DNA of 64,000 bases from Escherichia coli. Lineage in GTDB: Bacteria; Pseudomonadota; Gammaproteobacteria; Enterobacterales; Enterobacteriaceae. Position numbers and translations under genes: made by a program. The stretch lies in the NCBI RefSeq assembly GCF_003019035.1, contig NZ_CP027447.1; one strand, written 5' to 3'. The notes under the pieces were generated by a model. The model did not search any database and had not been told where the DNA came from. It worked only from the letters and a program-made list of their open reading frames with translations. Below, piece after piece: positions 6,022-19,635 of the stretch (positions are counted from its first letter, which is position 1; every line of letters starts with the position of its first letter).

Positions 6022-7173
6022 TTACATTGCGGCGCGATAAATCGCCACAATTTCTTCGTGAGTTGCCTGGATCGGGTTAGTAAAGCCACAGGCATCTTTC
6101 AGGGCATTAGTCGCCAGTACCGTGAAATCTTCTTCTTTCACGTTCAGATCGCGTAGGCCTGCCGGGATATCCACTTTCTTCGCCAGTTCACGGATGGCGT
6201 TAATGCAGGCTTCAGCCCCTTCCGCGTCATTTTTGCCTGTCACGTTCACGCCCATAGCAGCAGCACAGTCACGCAGACGCGCAGCGGCGACTTTGCTGTT
6301 GAATACCTGAACATGCGGCAGCAGAACAGCATTACATACACCGTGTGGCAGGTTGTAGAAACCGCCCAGCTGGTGCGCCATCGCATGAACATAACCCAGA
6401 GAAGCATTATTGAACGCCATACCGGCGAGGAACTGGGCATAAGCCATTGCTTCACGCGCTTTAGCATTGCTGCCATCTTCAACGGCTAACGGCAGATTTT
6501 CGGCAATCATGGTCACCGCTTTCAGTGCGCAAGCGTCAGTGATCGGCGTGGCGGCAATAGAAACATACGCTTCGATAGCGTGCGTTAAGGCATCCATACC
6601 CGTTGCGGCGGTCAGTGACTTCGGCATACCGATCATCAGAGAGGAGTCATTGACAGAAAGCAACGGAGTTACATGTTTATCAACAATCGCCATTTTGATA
6701 TGACGCGCTTCGTCAGTGATGATGCAGAAACGGGTCATTTCAGAGGCCGTACCCGCCGTGGTATTGATGGCGATCATCGGCAGCTGCGGTTTTGCAGAGC
6801 GGTCAACGCCTTCGTAATCGCGAATATCGCCGCCATTGGCTGCCACCAGCGCAATACCTTTTGCGCAGTCGTGCGGAGAACCACCGCCTAAGGAGATCAC
6901 GCTATCGCAATTATTTTCTTTAAGTAATTTCAAACCTGCGGCGACGTTTTCCGTGGTGGGGTTAGGTTGGGTGCCATCATAAATAACGCTAAAAATATTG
7001 CGTTCTTCCAGTGCTTTTTGCACATCACCCGCCATACCCAATTTCGTTAACATATTGTCGGTGACAATTAAGGTACGGGTAAATCCATAATCTGCCATCA
7101 TATTCATTGCATCATTCAATGAATCAGCACCAATAACATTCACGGAAGGAATAAAAAAGGTTGAAGCTGCCAT
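6022..7173 (-). CDS. yiaY: Iron-containing (group III) alcohol dehydrogenase
   Basis: 383-aa [22 protein letters not shown]... with GGGSPHD and Fe-ADH signature regions; sits between aldB and selB as in E. coli. Confidence 0.9.
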
Positions 7174-7363: not shown

Positions 7364-9208
7364 TTATTTTTCCGGAAATAATAATGCGTCGCGCAATAAA
7401 TGATCATTTCCACGACGACGCGTAAAGCCAATGCGGTCAAAATATTCCAGAATCTGAATTGCCAGCTTTCGGCCTACGCCTAAGCGATCGCGGAAATCCG
7501 CCGCGCAGGTTGAACCACACTCCTGATCGAGATCGCGGATCATATTGGCAAATTCGACAATCCGATCGTTACGGTAATAACGATCTTTAACGATCGCGGT
7601 AATTATCCCCTGCTGCGCCGCCTGGCGTAGAGTCAGGCGCATTGCCTGCTCGTCGGTTCCCGTCTCTTTTGCCAGATCACGCACCCACCACGGTTCGTCA
7701 CCAAACAGCGGCTCTGCTTTTTGCCAGATGGCCTGCTGCTCTTCGCTGAAGCCCGCTTTGTGATCCGGCAGATGCAGCCAGCCGTGATGACTGAGGATGT
7801 CGCCGCTTTCGCGCATCTTTTCAATCAGCAACAGTACCAGCGCTTCATCTTCCATTGGCAACGCCATACGTCGCAGACGTTCGCGCCCAGGACCAGGCTC
7901 ATCGCGATGTTGCTCATGATAAGTCGCTAATGTGTCGATAATTTTCCGCTGCCAGCGGGCGGCAACTGGCGCATTCAACAAGCTGTAACCAGCCTGAATA
8001 TAGCCAGGCTGTTGCAGCAGTTCGCGCATCCCTTCGCCGTTGAGCTGCCGTGCCCAGGCGAAATCCGCAAGGTTAACCGCGCCGCGTTCCAGATGAACAG
8101 ATAACGCATCGGCATCGCTCTGCGCCCGTGCAAGAGACGCCAGCCATTGCAGATATTCCGGCTTACGCTTACCGCGACGCGGCGGGTTAAGCATCACCAC
8201 ACGCGCCCCCGCCAGCGTGTTGCGGGCCGAGATATCGCGCAGCACTATGCGATCGTTATCCGCCAGCCACAGCGGCGTGTCGAACACCAGCTCGGCAAGG
8301 TTATCTTCCAGCAGCGAAACGCGTCCCGTAACGTGGCTGGCGGCGTGGTGAATATGCAGCGGCTGCCACTGGGTCAGCGGTGTATGGGTTTGAAGCTCAA
8401 CTATCACCCGCGTAAACGGCTCCGGCGGCGCATCGGCAAGCAACCAGTCGCCACGGTTAATCTGTTCTTTTTCCGCATCACCCGCGATGTTAAGCGCAAT
8501 ACGCTGCCCGGCATGAGCTGCATCTGTTGGCTGATTTTGCGCATGTAGCGCACGCACGCGCATCGGTTTATTTACACCAGTCAGCCAGATTGAATCGCCT
8601 ACCTTCACTTCCCCGCTTAACGCCGTACCGGTGACGACCAGCCCGGCACCTTTTACGGTAAATGCGCGGTCGATCGCGAGGCGGAAACTATGTTGGCTGG
8701 CGTGTTCGCGTTCTGGTAACTGAAGCAGATGCTCGCGCAGGGCATCAATTCCCCGACCTTCGGTTGCTGCGGTGATAAACAGTTTTGCCTCAGCAAAACC
8801 GTATTCCCGCAGCACCTCCTTTACCTGGCGTTCAACCTCATCAACACGCGCTTCGTCCACGCGATCGGCTTTGGTCAGCGCCACTGTCAGCATCGGATTA
8901 CCGGTCAGCTGCAAAATCGCCAGATGCTCACGGGTCTGTGCCATCACGCCGTCATCGCACGCCACCACCAACAGCGCGTGATCGATACCACCAACGCCCG
9001 CCAGCATGTTGGAAAGAAACTTTTCATGACCGGGTACGTCGATAAAACCAGGCACGCGACCATCCGGCTGCGGCCAGTAGGCATAGCCGAGATCGATGGT
9101 CATGCCGCGCTTTTTTTCTTCCGGCAGACGGTCGGCATTTACGCCAGTAATCGCCTGCAATAAGGTTGTTTTGCCGTGGTCAACGTGTCCGGCAGTCGCA
9201 ATAATCAT
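7364..9208 (-). CDS. selB: Selenocysteine-specific translation elongation factor
   Basis: 614-aa [25 protein letters not shown]... with GTP-binding motifs; overlaps selA stop by 4 nt (ATGA). Confidence 0.95.
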
Positions 9209-10596
9209 TTCAACAACATCTCCAAAAACCGTTGCTCATCTTCAAGGCAGCGTAAATCCAGCCACAATCGTCCGTCATAAATACGACCAATCACCGGCAC
9301 TGGCAATTCACGCCAGCGGGCGGCTAATGACTCAAGGTGGCTACCGCGTCCATCATGGGGTGTAAACGTTAATGCCGCGCTCGGCAGGCGATCAACCGGC
9401 AGCGAACCACTGCCAATCTGCGAAAGACATGGCATAACCTGTACCGCAAACTCCGCGCCGTAATGTGCGGCAAGGGGAGCCTGTAAACGTTGTGCCTGGA
9501 TTTGAATGACCTCTGCGCTGCGGGTAAGCAGGCGCAGGGTCGGTAATTTTTTACTCAGAGCTTCAGGGTGTAAATAAAGACGCAACGTGGCTTCCAGCGC
9601 CGCAAGGGTCATTTTATCCGCGCGTAATGCACGCTTCAGCGGGTGGCTTTGCAGGCGGGCGATCATCTCTTTTTTACCAACGATAATCCCTGCCTGCGGC
9701 CCGCCTAACAACTTGTCGCCGGAGAAACTCACCAGACTGACGCCCGCCGCAATCAACTCCTGCGGCATTGGCTCTTTCGGCAAACCGTACTGGCTAAGAT
9801 CGACCAGCGAGCCACTGCCTAAATCAGTCACCACGGGAATATCCAGTTCTTTGCCAAGCGCCACCAGTTCAGCTTCGTCTATCGCTTTGGTGAACCCCTG
9901 AATGCTGTAGTTACTGGTATGTACTTTCATCAACAGTGCGGTATTTTCATTCACCGCCTGACGATAATCATTCGCGTGCGTGCGGTTGGTGGTCCCTACT
10001 TCGTGTAGGGTGCAGCCTGCCTGACGCATAACATCGGGAATACGAAACGCGCCGCCAATCTCCACCAGTTCGCCGCGAGAAACCACCACCTCTTTCCCGC
10101 TGGCAGTGGCCGCCAACATCAATAACACCGCCGCCGCATTGTTATTAACGATACAGGCATCTTCCGCCCCCGTAATACGGCACAGCAGCTGCGCCAGCGC
10201 ACGATCGCGATGTCCGCGTCCGGCGTCGTCCAGATCGTACTCGAGGGTCACTGGCGAACGCATAGCCTTCGTAACGGCTTCCACCGCGGCTTCCGCCTGT
10301 AAAGCTCGCCCAAGGTTGGTATGCAGCACGGTTCCCGTCAGGTTGATCACCGGACGCAGCGCGCTTTGCGCCTCTTTCGTCAACCGGGCATCAACTTCTT
10401 GCGCCCAGTTTTCACACCATGCGGGCAGCGTCTGGCTGCCACGAATCACTTCTCGCGCTTCGTCGAGCATCTGACGCAACAATTCCACCACGCGGGTGTG
10501 ACCATAAGTATCACGCAAAGAAAGGAAGGAGCTATCGCGCAATAAGCGATCAATAGCCGGAAGTTGACTATAGAGGGAACGCGTTTCGGTTGTCAT
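9205..10596 (-). CDS. selA: L-seryl-tRNA(Sec) selenium transferase
   Basis: 463-aa [24 protein letters not shown]...; ATG confirmed at 10594-10596. Confidence 0.95.
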
Positions 10597-11530: not shown

Positions 11531-14500
11531 ATGAGCGGAAAACCGGCGGCGCGTCAGGGCGACATGACGCAGTATGGCGGTAGCATTGTTCAGGGTTCTG
11601 CCGGGGTGCGTATTGGTGCCCCCACCGGTGTGGCCTGTTCGGTGTGCCCCGGCGGGGTGACGTCCGGCCATCCGGTCAATCCGCTGCTGGGTGCAAAGGT
11701 CCTTCCCGGCGAAACCGACCTTGCCCTGCCCGCCCCGCTGCCGTTCATTCTCTCCCGCACCTACAGCAGTTACCGGACAAAAACGCCCGCGCCGGTGGGG
11801 AGCCTCGGCCCCGGCTGGAAAATGCCTGCGGATATCCGCTTACAGCTGCGCGATAACACTCTGATACTCAGTGATAACGGCGGCAGAAGCCTGTATTTTG
11901 AGCACCTGTTTCCCGGTGAGGACGGTTACAGCCGCAGCGAGTCACTCTGGCTGGTGCGCGGCGGCGTGGCGAAACTGGATGAAGGTCACCGGCTGGCCGC
12001 ACTCTGGCAGGCGCTGCCGGAAGAGCTTCGCCTGAGTCCGCATCGTTATCTGGCGACGAACAGTCCACAGGGGCCGTGGTGGGTACTCGGCTGGTGTGAG
12101 CGGGTGCCGGAGGCGGAGAAGGCCACTTCCGGCGGGACGGAACCGTCCGCTTTTCCTGATACCCTGCCGGGTTACACCGAATATGGCCGGGACAACGGCA
12201 TCCGTCTGTCTGCCGTGTGGCTGACGCACGACCCGGAATACCCGGAGAATTTACCTGCCGCGCCGCTGGTGCGCTATGGCTGGACGCCACGCGGCGAACT
12301 GGCGGTGGTGTATGACCGCAGCAATACACAGGTGCGCAGCTTTACTTACGATGATAAATACCGGGGCCGGATGGTGGCGCACCGCCGCGCGGGCCGGCCG
12401 GAAATCCGTTACCGTTACGACAGCGACGGGCGGGTGACAGAACAGCTAAACCCGGCAGGCTTAAGCTACACGTATCAGTATGAGAAAGACCGCATCACCA
12501 TCACCGACAGCCTGGACCGCCGTGAAGTGCTGCACACGCAGGGCGAAGGCGGGCTGAAGCGGGTGGTGAAAAAGGAACACGCGGACGGCAGCGTCACGCA
12601 GAGTCAGTTTGACGCGGTGGGCAGGCTTAAGGCACAGACGGATGCCGCAGGCCGGACGACTGAGTACAGCCCGGATGTGGTGACGGGACTCATCACGCGC
12701 ATCACCACGCCGGATGGCAGGGCATCGGCGTTTTACTATAACCACCACAACCAGTTAACGTCAGCCACCTGGCCTGACGGGCTGGAAATACGCCGGGAAT
12801 ATGATGAATCCGGCCGTCTGATTCAGGAAACCGCACACAACGGCGATATCACCCGCTACCGTTATGATAATCCACACAGTGACTTCCCCTGCGCAACGGA
12901 CGATGCCACCGGCAGCCGGAAAACCATGACGTGGAGCCGTTACGGTCAGTTGCTGACCGTCACTGACTGTTCCGGTTATGTAACCCGTTATGACCATGAC
13001 CGCTTCGGGCAGATGACGGCGGTGCACCGCGAGGAAGGCCTGAGCCAGTACCGCGCATACGACAGCCGTGGACAGTTAATTGCGGTGAAAGACACGCAGG
13101 GCCATGAAACGCGGTATGAATACAACGCCGCCGGTGACCTGACCGCCGTCATTGCCCCGGACGGCAGCAGAAACGGGACACAGTACGATGCGTGGGGAAA
13201 GGCCGTCCGTACCACGCAGGGCGGGCTGACCCGCAGTATGGAATACGATGCTGCAGGACGGGTCATCCGCCTGACAAACGAAAATGGCAGCCACACCACC
13301 TTCCGTTACGATGTACTCGACCGGCTGATACAGGAAACCGGCTTTGACGGCCGCGCACAGCGTTATCACCACGACCTGACCGGCAAACTTATCCGCAGCG
13401 AGGATGAGGGGCTGGTCACCCACTGGCACTATGACGAAGCAGACCGCCTCACGCAGCGCACCGTGAATGGCGAAACCGCAGAGCGGTGGCAGTATGACGA
13501 ACGCGGCTGGCTGACAGGCATCAGCCATCTCAGCGAAGGGCACCGGGTGACGGTGCATTACAGGTATGATGAGAAAGGCCGCCTGACCGGTGAGCGCCAG
13601 ACGGTGCATCACCCGCAGACGGAAGCACTGCTCTGGCAGCATGAAACCAGACATGCGTACAACGCGCAGGGGCTGGCGAACCGCTGTATACCGGACAGCC
13701 TGCCCGCCGTGGAATGGCTGACTTATGGCAGTGGTTACCTGGCAGGGATGAAGCTGGGTGACTCGCCCCTGGTGGAGTACACCCGCGACCGCCTGCACCG
13801 GGAAACGCTGCGCAGCTTCGGCCGTTATGAACTCACCACCGCTTATACCCCTGCCGGGCAGTTACAGAGCCAGCACCTGAACAGCCTGCAGTATGACCGC
13901 GATTACACCTGGAACGACAACGGCGAACTCATTCGCATCAGCAGCCCGCGCCAGACCCGGAGTTACAGCTACAGCGACTCCGGCAGGCTGACCGGCGTTC
14001 ACACCACCGCAGCGAACCTGGATATCCGCATCCCGTATGCCACGGACCCGGCAGGTAACCGCCTGCCCGACCCGGAGCTGCACCCGGACAGCACCCTCAG
14101 CATGTGGCCGGATAACCGTATCGCCCGTGACGCGCACTATCTTTACCGGTATGACCGTCACGGCAGGCTGACGGAGAAAACCGACCTCATCCCGGAAGGG
14201 GTTATCCGCACGGATGATGAGCGGACTCACCGGTACCATTACGACAGCCGGCACCGGCTGGTGCACTACACGCGGACACAATATGCAGAGCCGCTGGTCG
14301 AAAGTCGCTATCTTTACGACCCGCTGGGCCGCAGGGTGGCAAAACGGGTATGGCGACGTGAACGGGACCTGACGGGCTGGATGTCGCTGTCACGGAAACC
14401 GGAAGTGACCTGGTACGGCTGGGACGGCGACCGGCTGACCACGATACAGAACGACAGAACCCGCATCCAGACGATTTATCAGCCGGGGAGCTTCACGCCA

Positions 14501-15571
14501 CTCATCAGGGTCGAAACCGCCACCGGTGAGCTGGCGAAAACGCAGCGCCGCAGCCTGGCGGATGCGCTTCAGCAGTCCGGCGGCGAAGACGGTGGTGATG
14601 TGGTGTTCCCGCCGGTGCTGGTGCAGATGCTCGACCGGCTGGAAAGTGAAATCCTGGCTGACCGGGTGAGTGAGGAAAGCCGCCGCTGGCTGGCATCGTG
14701 CGACCTGACGGTGGCGCAGATGCAAAACCAGATGGAACCGGTGTACACGCCGGCGCGAAAAATTCACCTGTACCACTGCGACCATCGCGGCCTGCCGCTG
14801 GCGCTTGTCAGCACGGAAGGGGCAACAGCGTGGTACGCAGAATACGATGAATGGGGCAACCTGCTGAATGAAGAGAACCCGCACCAGCTGCAGCAGCTCA
14901 TCCGCCTGCCGGGTCAGCAGTATGATGAGGAGTCCGGCCTGTATTACAACCGCCACCGCTATTATGACCCGCTGCAGGGGCGGTATATCACTCAGGATCC
15001 GATTGGGCTGAAGGGGGGATGGAACCTGTATGGATATCAATTGAATCCGATATCAGACATCGACCCCCTGGGTTTATCTATGTGGGAGGATGCAAAATCG
15101 GGGGCATGTACTAATGGTCTTTGCGGCACACTATCCGCTATGATAGGTCCAGATAAGTTTGATTCTATAGATAGCACCGCATATGACGCCTTAAATAAAA
15201 TAAATAGCCAATCTATTTGCGAAGATAAAGAGTTCGCTGGTTTAATATGTAAGGATAATAGTGGCAGATATTTCTCAACAGCACCTAACCGAGGGGAAAG
15301 AAAAGGATCATATCCATTCAATAGCCCTTGCCCTAATGGTACTGAGAAAGTATCAGCTTATCATACTCATGGTGCAGATAGTCATGGAGAATATTGGGAC
15401 GAAATATTTTCAGGCAAAGATGAGAAAATAGTTAAAAGTAAAGATAACAATATCAAGTCATTTTATTTGGGCACGCCCAGTGGTAATTTTAAAGCAATAG
15501 ATAACCACGGGAAGGAAATAACAAACGGAAAAGGATTACCTAATGTCTGCAGAGTTCATGGTAATATGTAA
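11531..15571 (+). CDS. rhsA: Rhs-family polymorphic toxin (PAAR-like N-terminus, YD-repeat core, variable C-terminal toxin tip)
   Basis: 1346-aa ORF; N-terminal [17 protein letters not shown]...; many YD/RYxYD repeats; core ends at DPxGL (DPLGL, nt 15062-15076) followed by an AT-rich ~164-aa C-terminal domain with several Cys; located between yibF and yibA. Confidence 0.9.
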
Positions 15572-15926
15572 AAAAATATTGTTTAGGAACTGTGTCATTG
15601 TATCTTTGTTTGTTTTTACATACAACACATGGGCGCAGTGTAATAATAATATTAAAATAATGCGCAAGTATGAAAGTGAGGGTAAATATACCGTTAGAAA
15701 TTTGGTTAAAAATAAAGCTATAGCATTGGAATTAGCTGAGATATATGTTAAGAATCGTTATGGGCAGGATGCCGCAGAAGAAGAAAAACCATATAAAATC
15801 ACTGAGTTAACAACAAGTTGGGTTGTTGAAGGCACCATTCACTCAGACCAAATTGCTGGTGGGGTTTTTATTATAGAAATAGGCAAAAATGATGGGGGAA
15901 TTCTGAATTTTGGCCACGGAAAATAA
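15543..15926 (+). CDS. Candidate Rhs immunity protein (hypothetical)
   Basis: 127-aa ORF overlapping the last 29 nt of the rhs gene; AAGGA Shine-Dalgarno about 7 nt before the ATG; hydrophobic N-terminus; AT-rich like the toxin tip. Assigned by position only. Confidence 0.45.
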
Positions 15927-16030
15927 GTATGTAAGGATAATCAAACATCGTGTGCGCTGATGGCAGAGTAGGTGGAGGACTCCAGACAGTCAAACGATAA
16001 AAAAAGATAGCCTTTATGGAGGTTCCTGCA

Positions 16031-16873
16031 ATGTCAAATACATACCAGAAAAGAAAGGCAAGTAAAGAGTATGGTTTATATAATCAATGTAAGAAACTAA
16101 ATGATGATGAATTATTTCGCTTACTTGATGATCACAATTCCTTGAAAAGGATTTCATCTGCCAGAGTATTACAGTTAAGAGGTGGGCAAGACGCTGTTAG
16201 ATTGGTAATTGAGTTCTGCTCTGATAAAAATTATATCCGTAGAGATATCGGAGCATTTATACTCGGGCAAATAAAAATTTTCAAAAAATGCGAAGATAAT
16301 GTGTTTAATATTTTGAACAATATGGCATTGAATGATAAGAGCGCTTGCGTTCGAGCTACGGCAATCGAGTCAACGGCTCAGCGATGCAAGAAAAACCCAA
16401 TTTATTCACCTAAAATAGTAGAACAATCTCAAATTACTGCTTTTGATAAATCGACTAATGTCAGACGTGCTACAGCATTTGCTATTTCTGTTATCAATGA
16501 TAAAGCAACAATTCCACTATTGATTAATCTGTTAAAAGATCCAAATGGAGATGTCAGAAACTGGGCCGCATTTGCAATAAATATCAATAAATATGATAAT
16601 AGTGATATTAGGGATTGTTTTGTGGAGATGCTTCAGGATAAAAATGAGGAAGTCCGTATTGAAGCAATAATCGGACTTTCCTACAGAAAAGATAAAAGGG
16701 TTTTATCTGTTTTATGCGATGAGTTAAAAAAAAATACTGTTTATGATGATATCATTGAAGCTGCGGGTGAATTAGGTGATAAAACGCTACTTCCTGTTTT
16801 AGATACTATGTTGTACAAGTTTGATGACAATGAAATTATAACTTCCGCTATTGATAAGCTGAAGCGTTCATAG
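16031..16873 (+). CDS. yibA: HEAT/armadillo-like repeat protein
   Basis: 280-aa product from ATG 16031 (MSNTYQKRKASKEYGLYNQ...), GGAGG Shine-Dalgarno 8 nt upstream; ORF-track start 16016 is 5 codons further up. Matches my recollection of E. coli YibA. Confidence 0.8.
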   Translation: MSNTYQKRKASKEYGLYNQCKKLNDDELFRLLDDHNSLKRISSARVLQLRGGQDAVRLVIEFCSDKNYIRRDIGAFILGQIKIFKKCEDNVFNILNNMALNDKSACVRATAIESTAQRCKKNPIYSPKIVEQSQITAFDKSTNVRRATAFAISVINDKATIPLLINLLKDPNGDVRNWAAFAININKYDNSDIRDCFVEMLQDKNEEVRIEAIIGLSYRKDKRVLSVLCDELKKNTVYDDIIEAAGELGDKTLLPVLDTMLYKFDDNEIITSAIDKLKRS

Positions 16874-16920
16874 CGTGAGTTGCCTATGCACAGTGGGGTA
16901 TTCCCGCCGGCACGGTGCAG

Positions 16921-17040
16921 ATGCTCGATCGGCTGGAAAGTGAAATCCTGGCTGACCGGGTGAGTGAGGAAAGCCGCCGCTGGCTGGCATCGTGCGGCCT
17001 GACGGTGGCGCAGATGAAAAAACAGATGGAACCGGTGTAC
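16921..17040 (+). pseudogene. 5' portion of an orphan rhs core-end ORF, separated from its 3' part by an ISAs1-family insertion
   Basis: nt ~16901-17040 nearly duplicate rhsA nt ~14618-14746 (encoding [40 protein letters not shown]); reading frame runs into the IS left end and stops there. Confidence 0.7.
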
Positions 17041-18331
17041 CAGGGAAAGATCACGTAACGCTGCTTTTTTGTACTAAACAATTCGCATTTTATGTTTAAA
17101 AATTGAGATATTCCTCATTACCTGAAGCTGTTTTTTATTGCTTATACATGATCAAATACTCCTTACATAATTAAGGAGAACAAAATGGTACTTAAAAAAT
17201 TGATGGAACATATTTCTATTATCCCCGATTACAGACAAGCCTGGAAAGTGGAACATAAATTATCGGATATTCTACTGTTGACTATTTGCGCCGTTATTTC
17301 GGGTGCAGAAGGTTGGGAAGATATAGAGGATTTTGGGGAAACACATCTCGATTTTTTGAAGCAATATGGTGATTTTGAAAATGGTATTCCTGTTCACGAT
17401 ACCATTGCCAGAGTTGTATCCTGTATCAGTCCTGCAAAATTTCACGAGTGCTTTATTAACTGGATGCGTGACTGCCATTCTTCAGATGATAAAGGCGTCA
17501 TTGCAATTGATGGAAAAACGCTCCGGCACTCTTATGACAAGAGTCGCCGCAGGGGAGCGATTCATGTCATTAGTGCGTTCTCAACAATGCACAGTCTGGT
17601 CATCGGACAGATCAAGACGGATGAGAAATCCAATGAGATTACAGCTATCCCGGAACTTCTTAACATGCTGGATATTAAAGGAAAAATCATCACAACTGAT
17701 GCGATGGGTTGCCAGAAAGATATTGCAGAGAAGATACAAAAACAGGGAGGTGATTATTTATTCGCTGTAAAAGGAAACCAGGGGCGGCTAAATAAAGCCT
17801 TCGAGGAAAAATTTCCGCTGAAAGAATTAAATAATCCAGAGCATGACAGTTACGCAATTAGTGAAAAGAGTCACGGCAGAGAAGAAATCCGTCTTCACAT
17901 TGTCTGCGATGTCCCTGATGAACTTATTGATTTCACGTTTGAATGGAAAGGTCTGAAGAAATTATGCGTGGCAGTCTCCTTTCGGTCAATAATAGCAGAA
18001 CAAAAGAAAGAGCCCGAAATGACGGTCAGATATTATATCAGTTCTGCTGATTTAACCGCAGAGAAGTTCGCCACAGCAATCCGAAACCACTGGCACGTGG
18101 AGAATAAGCTGCACTGGCGTCTGGACGTGGTAATGAATGAAGACGACTGCAAAATAAGAAGAGGAAATGCAGCAGAATTATTTTCAGGGATACGGCACAT
18201 CGCTATTAATATTTTGACGAATGATAAGGTATTCAAGGCAGGGTTAAGACGTAAGATGCGAAAAGCAGCCATGGACAGAAAGTATCTGGCGTCAGTCCTT
18301 GCGGGGAGCGGGCTTTCGTAATCTTTCCCTG
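17041..18331 (+). mobile_element. ISAs1-family insertion sequence (H-repeat element), apparently intact
   Basis: Imperfect terminal inverted repeats CAGGGAAAGATCACG... (left) and ...CGTAATCTTTCCCTG (right; first 11 nt identical); flanked by 9-bp direct repeat CCGGTGTAC (17032-17040 and 18333-18341); carries a full-length transposase ORF. Confidence 0.85.
17185..18321 (+). CDS. ISAs1-family transposase (H-repeat-associated protein)
   Basis: 378-aa [54 protein letters not shown]..., recognisable as the H-repeat (YhhI/YdcC-type) transposase found in E. coli Rhs elements. Confidence 0.9.
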
Positions 18332-18335
18332 CCCG

Positions 18336-19109
18336 GTGTACACGCCGGCGCGAAAAATCCACCTGTACCACTGCGACCATCGCGGCCTGCCGCTGGTGCT
18401 TATCAGCACGGAAGGGGCAACAGCGTGGTACGCAGAATATGATGAATGGGGCAACCTGCTGAATGAAGAGAACCCGCACCAGCTGCAGCAGCTCATCCGC
18501 CTGCCGGGTCAGCAGTATGATGAGGAGTCCGGCCTGTATTACAACCGCCACCGCTATTATGACCCGCTGCAGGGGCGGTATATCACTCAGGATCCAATTG
18601 GGCTGAAGGGGGGATGGAATTTTTATCAGTATCCGTTGAATCCGATAACTGATATTGACCCGTTGGGATTAGCGACCTGTTTATACAGCATAACTTTAGG
18701 TATGCTTTCATGCGTTTCAGATACGCCAAGTGATGATAATTCTTATGGTGTGCTTACTATTTCAGTCGCCTCTGATAATAATGGTAATAATATGCAATGT
18801 AAAAATAATCCTGGTTGTACACACTTACAAAATAGAGGCCCAATACCTCAAGGGGTATGGAGCTGGAATGTTAATGGTCCTGGAGCAACCAATAGAAAAC
18901 CTAATGGTATACGTTTAGTACCGTCAGCAAATACAGAAACGTATAATCGTGATGGATTTTTAACACATAGTTGTTTAAACGCTTTTGGTCCATCTTTAGG
19001 ACCTCGATTCTGTTCCGAGGGTTGTATAACTGGTTCATCTAATGACATGCAAAAATTAAATGAGCTAATATTTTCAGAGCCAGATAGCACATTAACAGTG
19101 ACGGACTAG
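18336..19109 (+). CDS. Orphan Rhs C-terminal fragment: core end plus a distinct toxin tip (3' part of the disrupted orphan)
   Basis: 257-aa ORF, GTG first codon; N-terminal 105 aa nearly identical to the rhsA core end (…[19 protein letters not shown]…[10 protein letters not shown]…), DPLGL at 18657-18671, then an unrelated AT-rich tip ([17 protein letters not shown]...). Confidence 0.8.
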
Positions 19110-19113
19110 AAAT

Positions 19114-19635
19114 ATGGCAAGGTTATTAACAATTGTGCTTTTTTTCTCTATTTCTGCGAATGCAGTTACTGTAAACCAATTTCAGAGAGAGTTGGATTTG
19201 GCAGACAAGGCAATATTATGGGCACTAATATCAGCCAGTACCCAAGAGGGACGAAAAGCGTGTTCACTTAGCTATTTTTCATGTAAAGCCGCAGAGGCTG
19301 AACTCGGACTGGCATATATGGCTGCTAATGATAACAAGGCATTTCTCACATCCTTATCTAGAATAATGATGTACAAAATAGATGCTGGACTTTCCGAATC
19401 CTATACATGCTATTTATTAAGCAAGGGAAAGATCATAAGACCATATCTGAAGAATCTAAATCCACACCAACTTGTCGCTGATTGCATTGAAACTGTAAAT
19501 AAAATAAAAGATAAAAATAAAAAAATCATTGATATAGATTCAGTTAATATTTGCAATGATAATAAAAATATAAATTGGAGAGTTAATAGTACTATTGTAG
19601 CCATTGATGATTCTATAAAATGCATCGATGAATAA
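19114..19635 (+). CDS. Candidate immunity protein for the orphan Rhs toxin tip (hypothetical)
   Basis: 173-aa ORF starting 5 nt after the orphan stop; very AT-rich; signal-peptide-like N-terminus MARLLTIVLFFSISANA. Assigned by position only. Confidence 0.45.
   Translation: MARLLTIVLFFSISANAVTVNQFQRELDLADKAILWALISASTQEGRKACSLSYFSCKAAEAELGLAYMAANDNKAFLTSLSRIMMYKIDAGLSESYTCYLLSKGKIIRPYLKNLNPHQLVADCIETVNKIKDKNKKIIDIDSVNICNDNKNINWRVNSTIVAIDDSIKCIDE

Follow-up and report, generated by a model that had tools for sequence, protein, structure and literature searches.

The stretch analysed (hereafter the window) comprises 64,000 nucleotides (nt) of one strand of an Escherichia coli chromosome (RefSeq assembly GCF_003019035.1, contig NZ_CP027447.1), and this report concerns the 3' end of an rhs gene within it, together with the small open reading frame (ORF) which overlaps that end (positions 15062-15926). 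Genes along this chromosome segment run in the order selB-selA-yibF, the rhs element, yibH-yibI-mtlA and on to the waa cluster. The rhs gene, as given in the ORF list, lies at 11531-15571 on the plus strand (as do all the genes, domains and motifs described below) and encodes 1346 amino acids with a core of the RhsA/RhsB type; 1301 of the 1346 residues aligned with K-12 RhsB (core and tip, protein alignment) were identical. Its N-terminal part carries the Pfam domain DUF6531 at residues 46-123 (E = 2e-17), and RHS repeats were found from residue 253 onwards. For a PAAR-like N-terminus, by which the protein would be loaded onto a type VI spike, a weak match to PAAR_motif was obtained (E = 0.18).

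The boundary between the core and the C-terminal tip was read directly from the sequence as DPLGL at 15062-15076. The motif PxxxxDPxGL occurs at just two sites in the window, at 15047 and at 18642, and the YD/RHS-repeat core of the gene ends in the first of them and is followed by a variable tip of lower GC content, which is the arrangement of the RhsA/B subfamily. The general literature on Rhs proteins puts their self-cleavage at this boundary. The tip comprises 164 codons (SMWEDAK to VHGNM) plus the stop codon (15077-15571; TAA at 15569-15571) and contains six cysteines (tip residues 11, 16, 48, 58, 85 and 158) and a histidine-rich patch. The next ORF, of 127 codons, lies at 15543-15926, overlaps the end of rhs by 29 nt and has an AAGGA ribosome-binding site at 15531-15535, 7 nt upstream of its ATG. 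The core has a GC content of 0.60-0.66, which drops to 0.46-0.37 over the tip and to 0.32-0.39 over the ORF. A first-pass annotation, made from the letters alone, had described the boundary, the drop in GC content, the 164-codon tail with its cysteines and histidines, and the overlapping ORF with its ribosome-binding site and hydrophobic N-terminus, and all of these features were borne out.

The same annotation had assigned the tip to no recognised toxin family, and on this point it was mistaken. The tip was identical to that of K-12 RhsB at 163 of 164 residues and matched the Pfam family DUF4329 (PF14220; E = 1.3e-39; model positions 2-112 of 116), which is the Tox-JAB-2 family of Zhang et al. 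(2012, PMC3482391), with E, H[ST]H, S, D as its motif. When 1.84 billion cluster representatives (clusters at 50% identity; E <= 1e-3) were scanned in full, 753 relatives of the tip were found. No match to the tip or to the product of the overlapping ORF was obtained with the NCBIfam hidden Markov models (HMMs), and a sequence search of the PDB with the tip (phmmer) gave chance matches only (internalin C at E ~0.9). The lack of an NCBIfam match and of a solved structure detectable by sequence is what speaks for a previously unrecognised family; set against the identity with K-12 RhsB, the DUF4329 match, the description of Tox-JAB-2 in 2012 and the 753 cluster representatives, that reading is so improbable that it can be set aside. 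Phage-borne Tox-JAB-2 versions are mentioned by Zhang et al. (2012, PMC3482391), and a tblastn search of phage genomes with the core of the tip returned no match.

The elements of the Tox-JAB-2 motif were located in the tip at E52 (15230-15232), H96-T97-H98 (15362-15370), S112 (15410-15412) and D115 (15419-15421), giving a JAMM-type motif which spans 15230-15421. Among 114 aligned family domains E52, S112 and D115 were invariant and H96, T97 and H98 were 97-99% conserved, and the same conservation was seen in the 69-sequence alignment from which the tip was modelled with AlphaFold2 (mean predicted local distance difference test score (pLDDT) 90; predicted template modelling score (pTM) 0.84). 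The best structural neighbours of the model were JAMM/MPN peptidases and isopeptidases, and the model has the JAB (deaminase-like alpha+beta) fold expected of Tox-JAB-2. The carrier is also as expected, the domain lying C-terminal to an Rhs core and starting right after the DPLGL motif that ends at 15076. Judged by the model, the tip is a JAB/MPN-fold domain with a complete JAMM-type catalytic set. A nucleic-acid deaminase toxin, which would share the fold, was considered and dropped, as the H/C-x-E (HxE) and PCxxC zinc-binding motifs of such enzymes are not in the tip.

The product of the overlapping 127-codon ORF was identical to K-12 YhhH at 125 of 127 residues, and RefSeq names the ORF yhhH by a BLAST rule. 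It matched the Pfam family Imm-NTF2-2 over the whole of the model (PF15631, the YbbC/YhhH family; E = 4.9e-25; model positions 1-68 of 68). The NTF2/cystatin-like domain is assigned to residues 60-127 (15720-15923), the alpha+beta cone fold of the family was found in YhhH, and the structural neighbours of the protein were mostly extracytoplasmic, with protease-inhibitor folds among them. Zhang et al. (2012, PMC3482391) list Imm-NTF2 family 2 as the immunity protein of Tox-JAB-2 and note that it is restricted to E. coli.

The association of the two genes was assessed by a megablast search of 15062-15926 (865 nt) against 5426 complete E. coli genomes. The stretch was found in 3007 of these, and in 2683 the tip and yhhH were present together (match covering at least 80% of the query); the matched stretch was nearly always annotated as 'rhsB: rhs element protein RhsB' followed by 'yhhH: protein YhhH'. 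Given this number of matching genomes and the membership of both proteins in Pfam families, the stretch is not a product of chance. Genes of the Imm-NTF2-2 family also followed DUF4329 tips that were just 43-55% identical, in loci from enteric and freshwater sources (L007, L011, L013 and L014, the gene of L014 being frameshifted). The layout of a toxin tip with an overlapping immunity gene, proposed in the first-pass annotation, is upheld by the two family matches and by the linkage in 2683 genomes. That annotation had also named two outcomes which would speak against the pairing, namely a tip of known family with a different immunity partner and the absence of the ORF beside the same tip elsewhere; the family is indeed known, but the partner listed for it is the family of this very ORF, and the ORF is present at other loci carrying the tip.

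Comparison with K-12 by blastn revealed how the pair came to lie at this position. Homology to the K-12 rhsA locus extends to 15024 and resumes at 15979, from where it continues through yibA to a downstream core fragment (98.96% identity), while window positions 12114-16381 are collinear with K-12 rhsB-yhhH and on through the pseudogene yrhC. The K-12 RhsA tip is unrelated to that of the window (its RefSeq name is polymorphic toxin type 34) and is followed directly by yibA. The last nine codons of a K-12-type RhsA (Ntox34) tip, SRQSNDKKR, and their TAG stop persist untranslated in the window at 15981-16010, just upstream of yibA (tblastn; K-12 RhsA tip residues 127-135, 100% identical). The yibA gene itself, encoding HEAT repeats, lies at 16031-16873 (98.96% DNA identity to K-12 yibA; NCBIfam PRK09687, E = 4e-138). 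The simplest history suggested by these alignments is that a cassette of Tox-JAB-2 and yhhH took the place of most of an Ntox34 tip in a K-12-type rhsA, whereby the immunity gene yibA was orphaned. The first-pass annotation had taken yibA to follow rhsA directly in K-12 and had suggested module replacement or insertion; the former is correct, and replacement is borne out by the two breakpoints, the rhsB-yhhH collinearity between them and the scar. Exchange of tips between rhs loci has been described previously (Jackson et al. 2009, PMC2935791).

The arrangement is also found elsewhere, yhhH followed by full-length yibA occurring in 1184 of the 5426 complete E. coli genomes (~22%), and strain C21 has the same layout at the yibF locus behind an intact Rhs protein of 1411 amino acids. 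A further strain has a yhhH-like gene and yibA at its rhsB locus, as displaced modules. In K-12, yrhC corresponds to the 5' part of yibA (window 16032-16381 against NC_000913.3 3623887-3624132, which is 6888-7133 of locus L003). Collinearity breaks off at 16381, where the K-12 sequence continues directly with the ISAs1/H-repeat (yhhI) element, represented in the window at 17040-18331, and window positions 16382-17039 are missing. Being collinear with the window through yrhC and then joined to ISAs1, the K-12 rhsB locus is a truncated version of the fuller window layout.

The position of yibA raises the alternative that it, and not the 127-codon ORF, provides immunity to the tip, with the ORF unrelated. 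The gene lies just downstream, and neutralisation of an Rhs tip has been proven for it, since yibA neutralises the C-terminal region of RhsA (Vlazny and Hill 1995, as cited in PMC3150448). That pairing, however, is with the K-12 RhsA tip, a different sequence (Ntox34); the K-12 rhsB locus keeps yibA only as the yrhC remnant while its yhhH is intact; and Imm-NTF2-2 genes come after DUF4329 tips in loci which lack yibA. Together with the linkage across 2683 genomes, the paralogous RhsD/YbbC pair of K-12 and the occurrence of Imm-NTF2-2 genes after distant DUF4329 tips, these observations indicate, at the level of sequence, that YhhH is the cognate partner of the tip and that YibA is not; a role for YibA against this tip is very unlikely.

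We therefore interpret the region, with high confidence, as the module at the 3' end of an Rhs polymorphic-toxin gene, in which a Tox-JAB-2 tip and the overlapping yhhH immunity gene represent the K-12 rhsB-yhhH module, now situated at the yibF/rhsA locus, where the Ntox34 tip has been mostly replaced and yibA orphaned. The genes form a known pair of known families in a common arrangement, and, with about one fifth of complete E. coli genomes carrying it, the layout is ordinary. The value of the locus lies in being a clear example of tip replacement, in which the breakpoints are mapped, nine codons of the old tip remain as a scar and its immunity gene has been orphaned.

The N-terminus of YhhH and the cysteines of the tip bear on where the toxin would act. 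Codons 1-31 of yhhH (15543-15635) encode a predicted export signal with a KK/R n-region, a hydrophobic core and T-W-A before Q, and the highest mean Kyte-Doolittle value over 11 residues was 2.38, at residues 17-27; residues 1-50 were of low confidence in the AlphaFold2 model of YhhH. The hydrophobic character of the N-terminus is kept across YhhH homologues although the sequence diverges, as seen in YbbC, where LFAC resembles a lipobox, and in other sub-lineages of Imm-NTF2-2 (four in all). The genes immediately downstream of DUF4329 toxins were surveyed at 11 loci from distant lineages (one of the genes being frameshifted), and an export-type N-terminus (a charged n-region and a hydrophobic segment with a hydropathy of 2.4-3.3) was found in 10 of the 11, whether or not the product belonged to Imm-NTF2-2. 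Two other immunity proteins of the window served as controls: YibA is without an export-type segment, and Imm57, the partner of a tip with a Tlde1 domain, has one. Within the toxin family, Cys58 and Cys85 co-vary (both present in 50, neither in 49 and only one in 15 of the 114 domains), and Cys11 and Cys16 are always either both present or both absent; such co-varying pairs fit disulfides formed outside the cytoplasm.

One of the surveyed loci, L008 (on a metagenome contig), encodes a distant SpvB-Rhs-DUF4329 toxin followed by two ORFs (region 8526-9700). The first has a hydrophobic N-terminus only when read from an upstream ATG and the second is a clear lipoprotein (MKKISILFLIFLLGC...), and either is a candidate immunity gene.

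The export-type N-termini on 10 of 11 partners and the co-variation of the toxin cysteines suggest a periplasmic target, and we consider it somewhat probable that the periplasm is the site of action of the Tox-JAB-2 tip. Adding the peptidase neighbours of the toxin and the extracytoplasmic and protease-inhibitor neighbours of YhhH, we tentatively propose, as a possibility still short of probable, that Tox-JAB-2 tips, including those of K-12 RhsB and RhsD, are not RNases or other nucleases but periplasm-acting, disulfide-stabilised JAMM metallopeptidases which cut a peptide or isopeptide bond of the envelope (a cross-link of peptidoglycan, for instance, or the bond between Lpp and peptidoglycan), and that YhhH and YbbC are secreted peptidase inhibitors resembling cystatin or PepSY proteins.

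In the mechanism envisaged, the sequence after DPLGL encodes a predicted hydrolase, a small JAB/MPN-fold domain with a complete JAMM-type metal-binding and catalytic motif (E52, H96-x-H98, S112, D115). By analogy with the Rhs systems that have been studied, the tip would be enclosed by a shell of YD repeats, set free after DPLGL and carried into neighbouring cells through a type VI secretion system (T6SS). Given its own Shine-Dalgarno sequence and the 29-nt overlap, translation of yhhH probably keeps step with that of the toxin, and YhhH would most likely be exported to the periplasm, where it would bind and block toxin arriving from sister cells. Toxicity and its neutralisation are assumed here by analogy with other Rhs tip/immunity pairs, and action outside the cytoplasm on a peptide-type substrate, not a nucleic-acid one, would follow from the predicted export of YhhH.

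A number of points weigh against this account. The signal peptides were judged by hydropathy (Kyte-Doolittle) and by eye, and are thus predictions; in the survey, the gene at L008 needs the upstream start to acquire its hydrophobic segment and that at L010 has no such segment. Zhang et al. (2012, PMC3482391) favoured a nuclease role for Tox-JAB-2, in-silico effector surveys label DUF4329 as an RNase, and one Salmonella survey described the partner of a DUF4329 Rhs protein as CdiI-like and without a signal peptide. The searchable literature yielded no experiment or assay with either this tip or YhhH, so that toxicity, immunity and substrate are all inferred; its matches for ybbC were mostly to the unrelated gene of that name in Bacillus subtilis. 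The annotation around the locus in the near-identical strain SCU-301 contains neither vgrG nor hcp nor any other T6SS gene, and the Rhs core of the window has lost 65 residues (see below), on which account this copy may not be deployable and the function of the carrier is in doubt.

The principal alternative as regards the site of action is that the tip works in the cytoplasm as a nuclease or RNase, the label given to DUF4329 in several in-silico surveys of T6SS effectors, and that YhhH acts in the cytoplasm, for example when translated from an internal start at Met40, which would leave out the hydrophobic segment. Behind that label no nuclease assay was found in the literature searched. The first ATG has a Shine-Dalgarno sequence in front of it and Met40 has none, the hydrophobic N-terminus is seen again in four sub-lineages of Imm-NTF2-2 as well as in unrelated proteins encoded downstream, the co-varying cysteine pairs fit an oxidising compartment, and the best structural neighbours of the tip are peptidases and isopeptidases. 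On this evidence we regard a cytoplasmic nuclease as unlikely, and Met40 was dropped as the true start of yhhH, having no ribosome-binding site and standing behind a conserved hydrophobic N-terminus. The RNase label in circulation for DUF4329 thus looks unsupported by the present sequence evidence, which points to the periplasm; the question bears on two K-12 genes and on a very widespread toxin family.

The core of this copy of rhs differs from its K-12 counterparts by an in-frame deletion of 195 nt (65 amino acids) relative to both RhsA and RhsB. Its junction was placed at 12114-12117 (within the region 12081-12150; strand not applicable) by blastn breakpoints and by protein and DNA alignments. 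Upstream of it the N-terminal part is collinear with K-12 RhsA/RhsB at ~96% DNA identity, and the gap of 65 residues starts after ...CERVPEA, between DUF6531 and the first RHS repeats. The core is accordingly not full-length, the protein having 1346 amino acids against 1377 in K-12 RhsA and 1411 in RhsB, although by sequence the gene is still a member of the RhsA/B subfamily. Among the 5426 complete E. coli genomes the junction sequence was present in one, that of strain SCU-301, which was also the sole 100% match to the tip region and in which rhs is annotated as a frameshifted pseudogene.

These observations raise the possibility that the module is a decaying relic in this strain, in which the core deletion disables the Rhs carrier and only the immunity genes yhhH, yibA and Imm57 still matter, as a shield against neighbouring cells. 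The uniqueness of the junction and its position ahead of the first RHS repeats, the pseudogene annotation in SCU-301, the insertion sequence (IS) element and orphan fragments downstream, and the lack of annotated T6SS genes nearby are all in keeping with it. On the other hand, all 1346 codons are in an intact frame, the tip and yhhH are essentially unchanged with respect to widespread, functional-looking copies, and errors of assembly may account for the SCU-301 frameshifts (23 gaps against the window over 9.5 kb). We consider decay of this copy a possibility to be kept in mind, although a rather doubtful one.

Downstream of yibA the window holds further displaced modules. A short rhs core fragment of 150 nt (16891-17040; 92.7-93.2% identity with core sequences, among them window 14599-14746) and an intact transposase gene of the ISAs1 (H-repeat) family (17185-18321; NCBIfam transpos_ISAs1, E = 6e-125; 97.3% identical to the K-12 yhhI region) are wedged between yibA and an orphan rhs C-terminal fragment. 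This fragment (18336-19109; Pfam RHS, E = 3.9e-16) contains the second DPLGL motif at ~18642 and ends in a tip with a Tlde1 domain (Tlde1_dom, E = 1.5e-6), and it is followed by the Imm57 immunity gene for that tip (19114-19635; Pfam Imm57, E = 2e-44), whose product has an export-type N-terminus with a hydropathy of 2.54. Tlde1 is a family known for periplasm-acting effectors.

Stacked displaced modules were also observed on the yhhJ side of the rhsB locus in another strain (L017; NZ_CP098197.1 343509-358770), where two immunity genes of the NTF2 fold, a DUF6258 gene, yibA and remnants of IS3, IS630 and ISAs1 illustrate the accumulation of cassettes. Elsewhere in the window, an ORF of 1648 codons lies at 28024-32970 on the plus strand; the SCU-301 counterpart, which carries the annotation YadA-like family protein, has 1570 amino acids, so the lengths differ.

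The module was finally compared with known systems. The K-12 RhsB tip and YhhH (b3482/b3483) are essentially the same genes, with the same 29-nt overlap and with DNA collinear from the core through yhhH to the start of yibA. The K-12 pair differs in its setting, being found at the nikR-yhhJ locus with yibA cut down to yrhC beside ISAs1, whereas in the window the pair occupies the yibF/rhsA locus, yibA is complete and the core is 65 residues short. The K-12 RhsD tip and YbbC form a paralogous Tox-JAB-2/Imm-NTF2-2 pair, which shares the catalytic motif, an N-terminal SGAC..G.C element and the cysteine pattern, and YbbC, like YhhH, has a hydrophobic N-terminus (lipobox-like in YbbC). In this case YbbC is ~48-51% identical to YhhH of the window, the tips are visibly diverged in alignment, the two genes do not overlap, and both the core subfamily and the chromosomal locus are different. 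K-12 RhsA (Ntox34) and YibA share the locus, the core family and the downstream yibA with the window and, in the literature searched, stand alone among the Rhs pairs of E. coli in having experimental data on both toxin and neutralisation; their tip is unrelated, and YibA is a HEAT-repeat protein without an export signal.

Beyond the Rhs proteins, the JAMM/MPN+ metalloproteases (AfJAMM, PfJAMM1, Rpn11, CSN5, BRCC36, AMSH and the bacterial Cap3) share the catalytic motif and the fold with the tip at an identity of just 12-20%, and the tip differs from them in its extra N-terminal helices, its cysteine pairs, its Rhs carrier and a probably exported inhibitor. The toxin clades of JAB domains are without the conserved residues of the ubiquitin-tail tunnel (Zhang et al. 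2012, PMC3482391), and for this reason the tip is proposed to work in the manner of a JAMM hydrolase and is not claimed as a deubiquitinase. Closest at hand is the Tlde1 tip with Imm57 in the same window, likewise an Rhs-borne tip whose immunity protein carries an export signal; its L,D-transpeptidase-like fold and chemistry are unrelated and the window copy is a displaced fragment without a full core, but the pair provides a working analogy for a periplasm-acting Rhs toxin.

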